Positions 1 to 33,492 of a stretch of 33,492 nucleotides of DNA are shown piece by piece. The position numbers and the translations under genes were made by a program. Source of the DNA: a virus (Duplodnaviria; Caudoviricetes); the IMG/VR virus record IMGVR_UViG_3300038379_000694, positions 1 through 33,492 of that record; one strand, given 5' to 3'. Below the pieces are notes generated by a model that was not told the origin of the DNA, searched no databases, and worked only from the letters and a program-made list of their open reading frames with translations. Numbering within the stretch: the first letter of the stretch is position 1; every line of letters starts with the position of its first letter.

Positions 1-180
1 TGTTGCCTCCTTCCGGTGGGGATGGACTGGGGTAAACTGGCGGCCAGGGGAACCTCCCCAAAATCAATTTTAAGGAGATTAAAATGAAACAGAATACTGC
101 ACTTCGGCTGGTTATTTCTCAGGGCCGCGAGGTCAAACCGGCCACCACAGAGATGGCTATTTCAATTCAGGAGTTTCTGG
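1..180 (+). repeat. Terminal direct repeat, copy 1 (circularisation overlap)
   Basis: Identical to 33313-33492 except C53 vs T33365. Confidence 0.97.
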
Positions 181-1112
181 TGGCGTTTAAGCAGGATGAT
201 AAAACTCCGGGGACGGTGGAGAAGTACGGCTGGCATTTGGAGCGGCTGGCGGAATGGCTGGCGGAGCGGCATGTAACCCGGCCGGGCCAGATGACGCGCT
301 TGCTTTTGCGGGAGTGGGGCGCGGGTCTTTTTGACCGGTGGGGGGCCTCGACGGTGAAGCAGGCTACCTGCGCGGCGCGAGCGTTTTTGAAGTATTTGCG
401 GGAGGAGAAGCTGCTGGATGAGCCGCTGGCGGATTGCCTGAAGTTGCCAAAGGTGGAAAGCGGGGAGCAACGGGTGTTGGATATTCAGGAGGTGCAGACG
501 GTGTTGGCCTCGTTTGCTCCTGACCGGGCGCTGGATGTGCGCGATTTGGCAATTATTTCGCTGTTGGTGGATAGCGGCCTGCGGGCTGCGGAATTATGCC
601 GGTTGAAGGAGAGCGATTTGCGGTTTGGGGTGCAGCTTTATGATCCGGAGACGAACCAGATTGTGACCGTGAATGTGTTGAGCGTGGTGCGAAAGGGGAA
701 GAAGCGGAAGCAGCCGGCCTATTTTGGGGAGGAGACGGCGGAGCGGATCAAGGCGTGGCTGAAGGTGAGGCCGCAGTTGGCCCGGCCGGAGGCGGAGGAA
801 TTGTTTGTGAGCCAAGGGGGGCTGAAGCCGGGGACGCATTTGACGCGGGATGGGCTGCGGGCGATTATCCGCACGGTGGCGCAGCGGGCGGGGGTGAAGC
901 ATTTTTCACCCCATGCGCTGCGGCGCTCGTTTGCCTGCCTGCTGGTTTTTGCGGGGGCTAACAGCCGGACGATTCAACTGTACGGCAATTGGTCCAATTT
1001 GAAGGAGGTGGAGACGTATACCCAGAGCTTGCAAGCCGGGGGGCAGTATCCGCGCTACAGCCCGATGAGGCTGGTGGAACGGCTGCGCCAGGCGGCTGAA
1101 CAGGGCGAATAA
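84..1112 (+). CDS. int: Tyrosine recombinase/integrase (XerC/D-like)
   Basis: SD AAGGAG; catalytic motifs GLRAAE (R), RKGKK (K), HALRR (HxxR), GNW (W), ETY (Y); N-terminal core-binding domain. Confidence 0.95.
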   Translation: MKQNTALRLVISQGREVKPATTEMAISIQEFLVAFKQDDKTPGTVEKYGWHLERLAEWLAERHVTRPGQMTRLLLREWGAGLFDRWGASTVKQATCAARAFLKYLREEKLLDEPLADCLKLPKVESGEQRVLDIQEVQTVLASFAPDRALDVRDLAIISLLVDSGLRAAELCRLKESDLRFGVQLYDPETNQIVTVNVLSVVRKGKKRKQPAYFGEETAERIKAWLKVRPQLARPEAEELFVSQGGLKPGTHLTRDGLRAIIRTVAQRAGVKHFSPHALRRSFACLLVFAGANSRTIQLYGNWSNLKEVETYTQSLQAGGQYPRYSPMRLVERLRQAAEQGE

Positions 1113-1123
1113 AGTTATCAACC

Positions 1124-1152
1124 AGACTCAGGAACGGGTTGTTTCTGAGTCT
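1124..1152 (+). other. Hairpin between the int stop and the att core
   Basis: AGACTCAG...CTGAGTCT inverted repeat. Confidence 0.55.
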
Positions 1153-1161
1153 GGGCCTGTT

Positions 1162-1197
1162 AGCAGTGGGTTCCAGGTTCGAGCCCTGGGCGGCTCA
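1162..1197 (+). other. attP core: 3' half of a tRNA gene (probably tRNA-Lys)
   Basis: 3' anticodon-stem strand GCAGT, variable loop GGGTT, T-arm CCAGG-TTCGAGC-CCTGG, acceptor strand GCGGCTC and discriminator A; no 5' half or D-arm; immediately downstream of int. Isotype is inferred from the acceptor/discriminator only. Confidence 0.82.
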
Positions 1198-1249
1198 TTA
1201 ACCAAGGTGCAGTATTCGGTTGGTAAGGTTCAGGTGGGCGCTTGGCCCG

Positions 1250-1275
1250 AAACCCGGCGCACGCCGGGTTTTTTG
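1250..1275 (+). terminator. Intrinsic terminator (replacement terminator for the host tRNA after integration)
   Basis: AACCCGGCG-CA-CGCCGGGTT followed by a T run. Confidence 0.85.
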
Positions 1276-1316
1276 TTTAAGGCACCTCTTGAGAGAGGCG
1301 GTGAAAGCGAGAGAAA

Positions 1317-2764: not shown

Positions 2765-2793
2765 ATATTACACCAGATTTTTACAATTGTCAA
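2765..2793 (-). promoter_or_regulatory. Leftward sigma70-type promoter (repressor)
   Basis: TTGACA-17 bp-TAATAT on the minus strand. Confidence 0.75.
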
Positions 2794-3025: not shown

Positions 3026-3082
3026 GTAGCAGGTAGCAGGTAGCAGGTAGCAGGGTAGCAGGTAGCAGGTAGCAAGTAGCAG
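3026..3082 (+). repeat. Heptamer tandem repeat (GTAGCAG) x8
   Basis: Read directly; fills the intergenic gap and ends in the next SD. Confidence 0.95.
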
Positions 3083-5188: not shown

Positions 5189-5482
5189 GTGGATAGTCTG
5201 CCGGTTTTTTATTTGGTTTTGTTTGGACTGCTGCTGCTACTGAGCCACGTGGCCGGAGCGGTGATGGCAAATTGGTCTTTCCGGGATGCGGCCCGGTTTC
5301 AGGGGTCGCTGCTGGCAGATTGGGACCGGCTGAAGCAGGAAAATAAGCTGCTTCACGAGGAAGTTTTTCAGTTGCGGGGCGAGATTTTGGAACTGAAACA
5401 GCGGCTCAATGCGGCGGAGGATCACATTGCGCAGTATAGCAGCCAATTAACAACCGAGCGTGAAGCGAGTTTTACTGGTTGA
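5189..5482 (+). CDS. Membrane-anchored coiled-coil protein (holin-like candidate)
   Basis: N-terminal hydrophobic helix followed by a heptad coiled coil; GTG start. Confidence 0.68.
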   Translation: MDSLPVFYLVLFGLLLLLSHVAGAVMANWSFRDAARFQGSLLADWDRLKQENKLLHEEVFQLRGEILELKQRLNAAEDHIAQYSSQLTTEREASFTG

Positions 5483-6002
5483 GGATCAACTGCCGTTTAT
5501 GGTGCAGGGCATCATCGAGGCCCTGGGCGAGTTCGCGGTGGAGTACGTGAAGACGGGCGACGCGGCGGTGGGCCGCTTCCTGAAGGGGACTTATGACCTG
5601 GTGCTGCTGGATCTCAGGCTGCCGGGCCTGCCGGGCCTCGCGGTGCTGGACGGTCTGCGGCGGATTGACCCGGAGCTGCCGGTGGTGGTGGTGAGCGCCT
5701 TTGGCGACCGGCAGACGCGGGAGCAGGCCCTCAAGCTGGGGGCCTCGGATTATTTTGTGAAGCCGCCCAATTATCGCCGGCTGCACCGGCGCATGCTGGA
5801 ATTGTGCGCCCGGCGGGAACTGGAACAAGCCAAGGGACGGATGCAAACAGTGCAACTGGAGGGGCGGCAGGCAGAGCAAATGGCGCTGATGCGGCGGCTA
5901 CAGAAGCTGCGCGAGCAGGCGGCCAAAATGGGGATTAGCACACCGCCAGAGGTGTTAGTGGAGATTGAGGATATAGAGCAGGAGATGGGGGGGTGGGGTT
6001 AA
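5460..6002 (+). CDS. Response-regulator receiver (CheY-like) with C-terminal helical hairpin
   Basis: VLLVED acidic pocket, LVLLDLRLP phospho-acceptor Asp, VVVSA Ser, YFVKP Lys all intact. Confidence 0.92.
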   Translation: MKRVLLVEDQLPFMVQGIIEALGEFAVEYVKTGDAAVGRFLKGTYDLVLLDLRLPGLPGLAVLDGLRRIDPELPVVVVSAFGDRQTREQALKLGASDYFVKPPNYRRLHRRMLELCARRELEQAKGRMQTVQLEGRQAEQMALMRRLQKLREQAAKMGISTPPEVLVEIEDIEQEMGGWG

Positions 6003-32215: not shown

Positions 32216-32956
32216 TTATCTCCATAATCCGTCTTCCCCCAGGGTAAAGCCGGTTTGAGCGGCCGGGTGCTGGCTCTCGATTTCCTGGCGGGTTTGGCCG
32301 CGGGATTGAAAGTCGCTCAAATCCAGGCTGCCGCCGGGCAGCGGCATTTGAAGGGGGGGCGGCCACTTCTGGTCTTTTAACTGGTTGTTGATCCAGCCGG
32401 CGGGGTTGGTGAAGCCGAGCCCGGTCCAGAGTTCGTTTTGGTCGCGGAACTCTTTGAGGTCACGCCAGGCTTGAACGAGTTCGAGTGAGCATGCGGTGGC
32501 GCGGTGGCTGCGCTCCGGTTCGTTGAGAAAATCGAGTAAAAACCAATTTTTTCTTTCAATTTCACCATGCAGCATGCATGAATCATGCATGGGGGACTCC
32601 AGGAGTCCCATCACCGGGTGATGGGACTCTATATGGCCCATCACCCGCCCTGATGGGACTCTATATGGCCCATCACTTGGGGGGTGATGGGACTCTATAT
32701 GGCCCATCACCCCTGGGGCAACCGGATTCCTGGAGTTCGGTTGCCCCAGGATGAAATAGCGATTTTTGGTTTTACCGAGCCGGAAATTACGATAACGCTC
32801 TGTTCGGATCAAGCCCAACTCGTCAAGTTCTTGCAGGATTCGTTGCAGGTGACGCCGGGAAACGCCGGCCAACTGCATAATCTGGCGCTGGTTGGCATCG
32901 CAGACGCCCTCTTTGGAAAGGGCGACGATGGCCTGGTAGACGGGGCGCAGTTTCAT
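32216..32956 (-). CDS. Replication initiator-like protein (N-terminal winged HTH, internal iteron-encoded linker, NPAGWI C-terminal motif)
   Basis: NQRQIMQLAGVSRRHLQRILQELDELGLI...NRYFI; repeated VMGHIESHHP; lambda-O-like layout. Confidence 0.78.
   Translation of the reverse strand: MKLRPVYQAIVALSKEGVCDANQRQIMQLAGVSRRHLQRILQELDELGLIRTERYRNFRLGKTKNRYFILGQPNSRNPVAPGVMGHIESHHPPSDGPYRVPSGRVMGHIESHHPVMGLLESPMHDSCMLHGEIERKNWFLLDFLNEPERSHRATACSLELVQAWRDLKEFRDQNELWTGLGFTNPAGWINNQLKDQKWPPPLQMPLPGGSLDLSDFQSRGQTRQEIESQHPAAQTGFTLGEDGLWR
32590..32710. repeat. Iteron array / candidate replication origin
   Basis: TGATGGGACTCTATATGGCCCATCAC (26 bp) exact at 32619, 32651 and 32685, plus a variant at about 32590; AT-rich tract at about 32537-32563. 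Confidence 0.8.
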
Positions 32957-33048
32957 GCGGCGGCCTCTGCGGCCGGGTGCTGGCCCAGATAATTGACCAG
33001 GGCCGGAAAATAGGCGCCCGGTTGAGGATGGGGCAAATGGTTAGACAT
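32953..33048 (-). CDS. 31-aa leader ORF translationally coupled to rep (not in the ORF track)
   Basis: SD AGGAGG; MSNHLPHPQPGAYFPALVNYLGQHPAAEAAA; ATGA overlap with the rep start. Confidence 0.68.
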   Translation of the reverse strand: MSNHLPHPQPGAYFPALVNYLGQHPAAEAAA

Positions 33049-33071
33049 AGAACCTCCTGTGGGGGTATAAT
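33042..33071 (+). promoter_or_regulatory. Promoter counter-oriented to the rep operon, overlapping the leader ORF SD/start
   Basis: TAGACA-18 bp-TATAAT. Confidence 0.55.
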
Positions 33072-33134
33072 AGGAGGGTAAGATTTTGGTTGGGAGGCCA
33101 AGCCTTACCCTCATTTCGTTTTTACCTTCAAGCG

Positions 33135-33168
33135 AAGAGCAGTCGGCGCCAACCGGTTGCTCTTTTTT
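33135..33168 (+). terminator. Intrinsic terminator 1 (end of candidate antisense RNA)
   Basis: 12-bp stem with two G-U pairs valid only on + strand, followed by T6. Confidence 0.75.
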
Positions 33169-33213: not shown

Positions 33214-33262
33214 GAGGCCGGGCGGGCGGCGGGGCGACATCCCTGCCCGCCCGGTCTCTTTT
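33214..33262 (+). terminator. Intrinsic terminator 2
   Basis: GAGGCCGGGCGGGCGG/CTGCCCGCCCGGTCTC then TTTT. Confidence 0.65.
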
Positions 33263-33281: not shown

Positions 33282-33313
33282 AGCGGCCAGGTTTGATTCC
33301 TGGCCGCTTTTTT
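33282..33313 (+). terminator. Intrinsic terminator 3, upstream of int
   Basis: AGCGGCCAGG-TTTGATT-CCTGGCCGCT then a T run. Confidence 0.75.
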
Positions 33314-33492
33314 GTTGCCTCCTTCCGGTGGGGATGGACTGGGGTAAACTGGCGGCCAGGGGAATCTCCCCAAAATCAATTTTAAGGAGATTAAAATGAA
33401 ACAGAATACTGCACTTCGGCTGGTTATTTCTCAGGGCCGCGAGGTCAAACCGGCCACCACAGAGATGGCTATTTCAATTCAGGAGTTTCTGG
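33313..33492 (+). repeat. Terminal direct repeat, copy 2 (includes the repeated integrase 5' end from 33396)
   Basis: 179/180 identical to 1-180. Confidence 0.97.

Follow-up and report, generated by a model that had tools for sequence, protein, structure and literature searches.

A phage tRNA trailer antisense to the beginning of the phage's integrase gene: a candidate integration-dependent RNA switch overlapping a boxA-like element

How might a prophage that has inserted itself into a transfer RNA (tRNA) gene keep its integrase low from then on? This question is raised by the first 1.3 kilobases (kb) of a Caudoviricetes DNA of 33,492 nucleotides (nt) (IMG/VR record IMGVR_UViG_3300038379_000694, positions 1 to 33,492; hereafter the window), where the segment just past the phage attachment site, attP, is antisense to the start of the integrase gene, int. 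The window is one whole contig that closes into a circle of ~33.3 kb: positions 33313-33492 repeat 1-180, a 180-nt terminal overlap with one difference at position 53, and that position is variable in metagenome run X1. A profile scan identifies phage genes for terminase, portal, capsid and tail proteins. The int gene (84..1112, plus strand) encodes a 342-residue tyrosine integrase, for which PF00589 (E 1.5e-27) and a weak PF02899 are the only profile matches, with none to an arm-binding domain. Named homologues come from Chloroflexota, including Anaerolineae, and Int is of this Chloroflexota (Anaerolineae) type.

The core of the complementarity is exact. Positions 1207-1217 are the perfect reverse complement of int positions 92-102 (11 base pairs (bp); codons 3-7), as a sequence-only reading of this DNA had reported. 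Pairing extends on one side through G1206-U103, A1205-U104, a 4-nt bulge (105-108) and 1199-1204/109-114, and on the other, beyond a G1218/A91 mismatch, through 1219-1221/88-90. The extended helix described in that reading, ~22 bp over int codons 2-11 with one G-U pair, one mismatch and the bulge, is thereby reproduced base by base. This match is the top-listed inverted repeat within 1-2400, and the int core is the sole perfect complement of at least 9 nt to the 24-nt seed on both phage strands of the circle. The target predicted from sequence, folds and co-fold (88-114, core 92-102) lies within the int translation start region (68..114, plus strand), in which a weak hairpin (68-84) presents the Shine-Dalgarno bases in its loop and the ATG occupies 84-86. 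Co-folding the trailer with positions 60-130 yields a gain of -16.8 kcal/mol, equalled by 0 of 500 shuffles, and by this gain the int start ranks second of 43 candidate gene starts (one of the 43 is displaced by one base). The core had been placed in the loop of a small hairpin; with unpaired probabilities of 0.26-0.91 for bases 1207-1217, that surrounding hairpin is only partly formed. A second, split pairing (6 + 8 nt) between trailer positions 1222-1247 and leader positions 33095-33108, noticed by eye, was rejected as a general feature: across the family it came out best for 4 of 71 elements where chance predicts 4.4. In these computations the circle was joined at 33310 rather than 33312, which shifts leader coordinates beyond -84 by 2 bases and nothing else.

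The arrangement around attP would allow this segment to be transcribed from a host promoter. In the order found here, that of attP in a free phage, int is followed by a 14-bp hairpin, a tRNA-Lys fragment and, past ~50 nt of trailer, a terminator-like hairpin; integration would leave the trailer downstream of the restored host tRNA and int at the far end of the prophage. The 14-bp hairpin (1122..1154), which separates the int stop from the att core, was taken from the inverted-repeat list, and the fold of 1112-1200 has a z score of -4.46 (0 of 200 shuffles as good). The attP core (1164..1197, plus strand) corresponds to the 3' portion of tRNA-Lys(CTT), anticodon stem through discriminator A. 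It is matched with at most 3 mismatches in 26 of 151 Anaerolineae genomes, all five of the matching host loci scanned are tRNA-Lys(CTT), and tRNA-like contigs from metagenome runs align over the same 1164-1197. Both the identity of the tRNA and the limits of the host likeness correct the sequence-only reading. The predicted trailer RNA (1198..1277, plus strand, ~80 nt), which we infer to be expressed, contains the antisense segment (1199-1221) with its perfect core and ends in an intrinsic-terminator-like hairpin (1249..1277, plus strand) found by sequence scan, where a terminator had been proposed. Rfam 15 has no match across the window at gathering score. Contigs from 8 of 14 metagenome runs contain no joints, nor any variant in either pairing segment where these are covered. 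One 57-nt contig of run X1 (record 4) joins 30 nt of the trailer (1227-1256) to 27 letters that resemble a CRISPR (clustered regularly interspaced short palindromic repeat) repeat, presumably type I-E-like; a trailer-targeting spacer may exist in a host from this sample.

Related elements share this layout: int, then a tRNA 3' fragment, the tRNA varying widely between elements, then a trailer that contains a conserved 19-nt motif, boxA-like on the minus strand. They were collected by integrase searches of viral, metagenome and genome collections and by a motif pattern scan, in which 21 of 23 hits have an integrase frame within 1.8 kb. In the first pool an int frame was found in 156 loci (this phage included) and a T-arm in 55, and 31 were kept after removal of 6 duplicates and of rows without the motif. 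L019 was retained by eye with a motif score of 11, the T-arm of L149 was corrected by hand, and the detector overlooked L007, L016-L018 and L022. Later sets kept 16 of 80 (metagenome) and 27 of 164 (the next set). The pool was chosen for the motif, so it gives no estimate of motif frequency. A single rule assigned all start codons, and it probably misplaced some, among them those of L030, L136 and L155. The distribution of pairing rows was read from a FastTree tree, and a quick tree served the analysis of G-U and A-C oppositions.

Some trailers in this pool match their own int start. When each seed of the 31 elements was ranked on its own start against swapped ones, the own start came first in 6 and among the top three in 10, which permutation reached in 1 of 100,000 trials; three control windows were null, and several of the 31 had been inspected by eye before the ranking rule was fixed. 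Perfect antisense cores of 8-13 nt to an element's own int start occur in 12 of 74 elements, where 1.36 are expected from swapped pairs, a count that uses a target window widened afterwards to -60..+40. Cores of at least 9 nt number 8 of 74 (0.32 expected). Same-strand matches stay at background (1 of 74 versus 1.03 expected), and no swapped pair among 2162 reaches 11 nt. Hence the complementarity whose absence from related phages would have spoken against it does recur in a minority of them. The matches form a single positional peak from -30 to +20 (10 of 47 versus 0.48 expected), with none elsewhere between -630 and +970. Target positions range from -42 to +27 relative to the start, whereas every core has its end between motif positions 0 and +7, and the core letters differ in every pairing element. 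Targets fall in early codons in this phage, L009, L010, L013, L019, L020, L021 and L026, at the Shine-Dalgarno region in L001 and L002, in the spacer in L209 and at an upstream site, -42, in L195. A terminator-like site similar to that of this phage lies within 150 nt past the motif in 35 of 69 elements, against 0 of 69 control windows.

Pairing rows occur in four separate parts of the tree. In the clade of this phage 4 of 7 rows pair; the largest clade, in which many spacers are very short, has 1 of 30, and the most distant has 0 of 9. Pairing looks selected in this phage's lineage and several others, yet only a minority of elements show it, superimposed on a boxA element that is more widespread. 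In L141 and L155 the trailers are almost identical past the motif and share one predicted upstream partner, with integrases from distant clades and different tRNA ends; int-att modules appear to be swapped between phages, and exchange of att arms could break pairing matches. In L014 (2778-2852) and L205 (2362-2434) a whole tRNA gene rather than a fragment follows int, and then the motif.

Host genomes contain the arrangement expected of the left attachment site (attL) of such a lysogen. A tRNA followed by the motif was found in 5 of 401 Anaerolineae genomes (7 matches); three of the seven follow an intact tRNA, as the lysogen model would have it, and three of the other four follow an integrase. 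An origin of the motif in the host was considered and rejected on this rarity. The int-linked fragments in host contigs L057, L058 and L060 have trailers without the motif, and this, with its scarcity in hosts, indicates that the motif belongs to the element.

Taken together, these observations lead us to propose that an integration-activated trailer RNA represses int translation in trans in the lysogen, a reading of sequence data to which we give an even chance of being right. Integration would place the phage trailer behind the host tRNA promoter, and base-pairing of the resulting ~80-nt RNA with the int start, in trans, would stop translation. In the circle the trailer would lack a tRNA promoter, so that Int could be made for integration; after integration excess trailer would keep Int low and the prophage stable. 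Such an excess is plausible from the int leader. Upstream of int, across the circular junction, lies a strong sigma70-like promoter (33042-33071, plus strand, score 11/12), followed before int by terminator-like hairpins (33134-33165 and 33282-33308, plus strand, with a third near 33216-33262 seen by eye). Because int stands behind both, its mRNA is probably scarce, and trailer RNA driven by the tRNA promoter would exceed it.

Several results weigh against this proposal. The plain duplex energy of the 51-nt trailer is equalled by 121 of 500 shuffles, and on duplex energy alone four other sites in the phage surpass the int start. The ranking rule, fixed beforehand and applied to the 16 new metagenome elements, gave 0 of 16 best ranks (permutation p 0.76); the next set contains 0 of 27 perfect cores of at least 8 nt, and the pattern-found set 0 of 13 cores. 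By set, 9 of the 17 first-fetched elements pair (0.27 expected) against 2 of 56 later ones, this phage being the remaining case, and clade and spacer length account for only part of that gap. The two later pairings have cores of 9 and 12 nt (0.25 expected at 9 nt or more, p 0.026), one of them visible only after the post hoc widening of the window. Motif-anchored helices with G-U pairs allowed show no excess outside the first set. G-U oppositions in the flanks would favour the two plus-strand RNAs; the raw flanks hold 15 G-U to 3 A-C oppositions, an excess that is gone once base composition is allowed for (G-U 18 versus 16.4 expected, A-C 3 versus 6.1; p 0.13 for the difference), so that wobble pairs do not settle the acting strand. 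With accessibility taken into account, 3 of the 12 pairing elements (this phage, L001 and L002) rank first among 21. Chance 8-mers happen, one unrelated pair having given one. L189, the closest relative with DNA (Int 73% identical), has the same 11-nt core in another trailer behind another tRNA, which speaks for the proposal, but its int start lies off its contig. Scans of viral contigs with P0001 and the five closest proteins returned no relative, nor did the 20-nt trailer pattern; P0002-P0005 (83-85% identical) were compared as proteins only. The host genomes searched yielded no lysogen showing a pairing element with both of its ends. In two of these genomes (G001, G002) the intact tRNA partner of an int-linked fragment lacks the motif, the int frame of the G001 element being broken; G003 has the fragment only, and in G061 the trailer of the intact tRNA L279 complements int L285 over 5 nt, which is no pairing, while L490 is not linked to att. 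A trailer RNA silencing int in trans, as first suggested, is supported in part, by own-start pairing and by the tRNA-motif loci; the feature is a minority trait with negative replications.

The match could also be chance or a relic, a neutral inverted copy in which the boxA tail supplies 5 of the 11 bases and only boxA is functional. That 62 of 74 elements do not pair, that sister rows often disagree and that both replication sets are negative all agree with it. So does an LRLV-like peptide (84-120) that is retained in the otherwise variable N-terminal extension of related integrases (this phage, P0002-P0005, P0009, P0011, P0013, P0019, P0020, P0022, L001, L002, L191 and L195), for it is present also where the pairing of relatives lies upstream of the start or is missing. 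Conservation of the codons in P0002-P0005 is hence no argument for RNA pairing. The peptide, which we take to resemble ClpX signals, may be a protease or adaptor signal. Chance is nevertheless hard to square with the first-set excess, with a single peak at the start region, with the lack of any 11-nt match between swapped partners or with pairing in over half of the phage's own clade, and we judge it unlikely.

The boxA-like element calls for attention in its own right, and it was absent from the sequence-only reading. It lies on the minus strand at 1213..1231, reads toward attP and int, is the sole match in the window (18/19) and resembles the host ribosomal RNA (rRNA) type. Its 3' end overlaps the antisense core, the last five bases being the complement of five core bases (1213-1217) that belong to this family-wide motif, and it is much commoner in the family than pairing is. 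In host genomes the reverse complement of the motif stands in sense orientation 19-107 nt before 16S or 23S rRNA at 13 of 20 loci scanned (scores 18-19/19), and likewise before rRNA at L160 and L165, the place that boxA occupies in Escherichia coli and Bacillus subtilis (PMC13753749). In L168, L173 and L178 (G002) the motif heads a repeated element, neither rRNA nor tRNA, that is present in several copies in one host genome and has no Rfam match.

Elements of this family often have a promoter that could feed the boxA strand. In 40 of 61 elements leftward promoter-like sites lie 250-780 nt to the motif's right (rightward 19; shuffled 11.8), in a band chosen after the data were seen; closer in, within 250 nt, they are not enriched (3 of 41 versus 4 of 41). 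Scanning 24 of the 28 small minus-strand frames linked to these promoters gave 8 HTH_26 (Cro/C1-type), 11 HTH_17, which we take to be excisionase-like, 1 HicB and 4 with no match. Upstream of int, 21 of 27 elements have their largest frame on the minus strand, and promoter-like sites there are mainly on the plus strand (17 versus 3 of 44). We infer by analogy that a leftward early transcript runs antisense through attP and int and arrives at replication genes in the circle alone, where the first gene of the leftward block beyond int is a replication initiator (32216..32956, minus strand; PHROG 270, E 3.9e-8). A weaker part of our proposal is that boxA would have a function separate from the pairing and more widespread, protecting this transcript on its way across attP and int, and that at induction the transcript, antisense to the trailer over its full length, could set int free. 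The picture is less clear in this phage than in its relatives: the clear leftward promoter, a sigma70-like member of a divergent pair (2765..2793, minus strand, score 10/12), is 1.5 kb from boxA with a terminator-like hairpin near 2410-2455 in between. It directly precedes an open reading frame (ORF; 2758-2459, 99 residues) that, like the other minus-strand frame of this phage, has no Pfam or PHROG match.

Such a transcript could itself be what the complementarity serves. The boxA-loaded leftward RNA would then pair the 3' end of its boxA, with the bases that follow, to the antisense int start 1.1 kb further on, forming a long stalk like that of rRNA precursors from which the antisense-int stretch is cut out or stabilised. 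The constant overlap of the core with the boxA 3' end and the leftward promoters are what this account would lead one to expect; it is also consistent with a degenerate boxA complement after host 16S (6 loci, scores 12-16/19) and with the nearly equal duplex energies of the two strands in this phage (-26.3 versus -26.1). The partner, however, coincides with the int start instead of lying in the freer leader beyond it. No partner peak exists for the boxA core itself, the second leader site is null, and A-C oppositions, which would be G-U pairs on the minus strand, fall below expectation, although not significantly. Since the target is the translation start alone, repression by the plus-strand trailer fits better than a stalk on the leftward RNA, and we consider minus-strand action decidedly improbable.

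The pairing might instead operate in cis, as the sequence-only reading also suggested. The int mRNA of the circle would read through attP as far as the terminator and fold its 3' end back on its own start, limiting Int while the phage is unintegrated or lytic, and integration would lift this brake. The genes and signals are suitably placed, int, att, trailer and terminator being collinear on the plus strand, and lambda sib sets the precedent of lowering Int from a read-through transcript (PMC2951348). The equilibrium fold of 1-1280, however, gives the core a pairing probability of only 0.05, and the 14-bp hairpin past the int stop may terminate the mRNA, or direct its processing, ahead of the trailer; we rate cis action no higher than a stalk on the minus strand. 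It is highly improbable that both segments are inverted DNA sites for Int, Xis or a repressor that autorepress int, akin to the arm-type sites named as an alternative at the outset: the tRNA-linked intS is documented as autorepressed (PMC2951348) and perfect cores with no significant wobble excess are compatible with DNA repeats, but Int lacks an arm-binding domain match, the matches are antisense only, their letters differ wholly between elements, several helices contain bulges, and an int gene preceding its tRNA is predicted not to be autoregulated (PMC2951348).

Repression by the trailer and protection by boxA could be parts of one three-state RNA switch across attP (integration lock, release at induction, rejoining to replication genes on excision), a possibility we raise with considerable doubt. 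An anti-int RNA made from the host tRNA promoter would let the prophage sense its own insertion and lock in. At induction the boxA-loaded cro/xis leftward transcript, fully antisense to the trailer, could soak up the trailer RNA and so release Int together with Xis. Excision would reconnect this transcript to the replication genes beyond int. Throughout, the guide part would re-adapt to each int start while the boxA scaffold stays fixed.

Other features of the genome were noted beside these. Between 33042 and 33312 and on through 1-60, the plus-strand promoter overlaps a small minus-strand frame at its start, near 33048, and a 5' hairpin follows; this region could make short antisense RNAs against the leftward early leader. 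The loop of hairpin 33282-33308 is T-loop-like. Units of ~20 nt repeated at 32600-32715, inside the replication-initiator gene, are probably origin iterons. Two 33-nt copies, 79% alike (1764-1796 and 2287-2319), each contain a hairpin and then a minus-strand Shine-Dalgarno-like run, and the first precedes ORF 1758-1537. Tandem 7-nt units (3030-3080) lie between the divergent promoters and a ParB-like gene. A response-regulator receiver domain gene (5460-6002; PF00072) adjoins the HNH and terminase genes on their upstream side.

If the proposed repression is right, insertion would feed back directly on the level of integrase through a promoter that the phage does not own. Silencing of Int after insertion is explained where Int binds its own promoter, and in the part of PMC2951348 available to us that explanation is not extended to genes lying before their tRNA. 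The overlapping boxA suggests that these Chloroflexota-type phages also borrow the host rRNA antitermination complex and so link replication to the circular state. Both, if right, would bear on the prediction of prophage stability and on integrase tools.

Several known systems share parts of this logic. Antisense RNAs such as RNA-OUT of IS10 and art200 of IS200 block translation of their element's own recombinase; they are encoded opposite their target and are fully complementary to it, whereas here guide and target are 1.1 kb apart in the circle and ~33 kb apart in the lysogen and share a short seed. In lambda, sib acts through ribonuclease III, and recombination at att separates it from int. 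The present layout likewise has an element past att that integration would part from int. Both elements are distal to int and alter Int output, or would do so; sib works in cis on a read-through transcript (PMC2951348), while the trailer is the complement of the int start and would act in trans when integrated. The intS gene of KplE1 also encodes a tyrosine integrase that targets a tRNA and is kept at low expression in the prophage, there by binding of Int and a directionality factor to a promoter at attL (PMC2951348). The same source describes the int-before-tRNA layout as rare and predicts it to be free of autoregulation, which leaves room for an RNA brake.

Closest in origin is 3'ETS-leuZ of E. 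coli, likewise a base-pairing RNA made from the 3' trailer of a tRNA precursor; it is host-encoded, independent of integration and a sponge of RyhB and RybB with Hfq (bioRxiv 10.1101/2021.04.25.441314), whereas here the trailer is phage DNA, integration would supply the promoter, and the start of an mRNA is the predicted target. The placement typical of that RNA, 3' of an intact tRNA and ending in a terminator, is found in relatives and hosts and was not seen for a lysogen of this phage. The small RNA ncRv12659 of prophage PhiRv2 is another phage-tRNA-host chimera that arises when a prophage inserts into a tRNA gene, running from a phage promoter into host DNA and not, as here, from a host promoter into phage DNA; pairing with int mRNA is not described in the accessible part of that report (PMC3861185).

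For the leftward boxA transcript the model is Tn916, where promoters on one side of attTn are predicted to drive genes on the far side only once the element is circular; it differs in being conjugative, and the part of the report consulted describes neither boxA nor a tRNA trailer (PMC9632896). In rRNA operons boxA is the loading signal for NusB-S10 before 16S and 23S, and the phage motif equals the Anaerolineae element found there, the letters of which are unlike the E. coli and B. subtilis consensus (PMC13753749); the phage copy, by contrast, is putative, lies in an att arm and is antisense to the tRNA. The literature searched, which held few subscription papers, describes neither pairing of a phage tRNA trailer with an int start nor a boxA in an attP arm. 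The element can thus be placed with 3'ETS-leuZ, sib, intS or ncRv12659 by likeness only: in its manner of action it would resemble a trans-acting antisense RNA that originates as a tRNA trailer, and in its purpose sib or the autorepression of intS.

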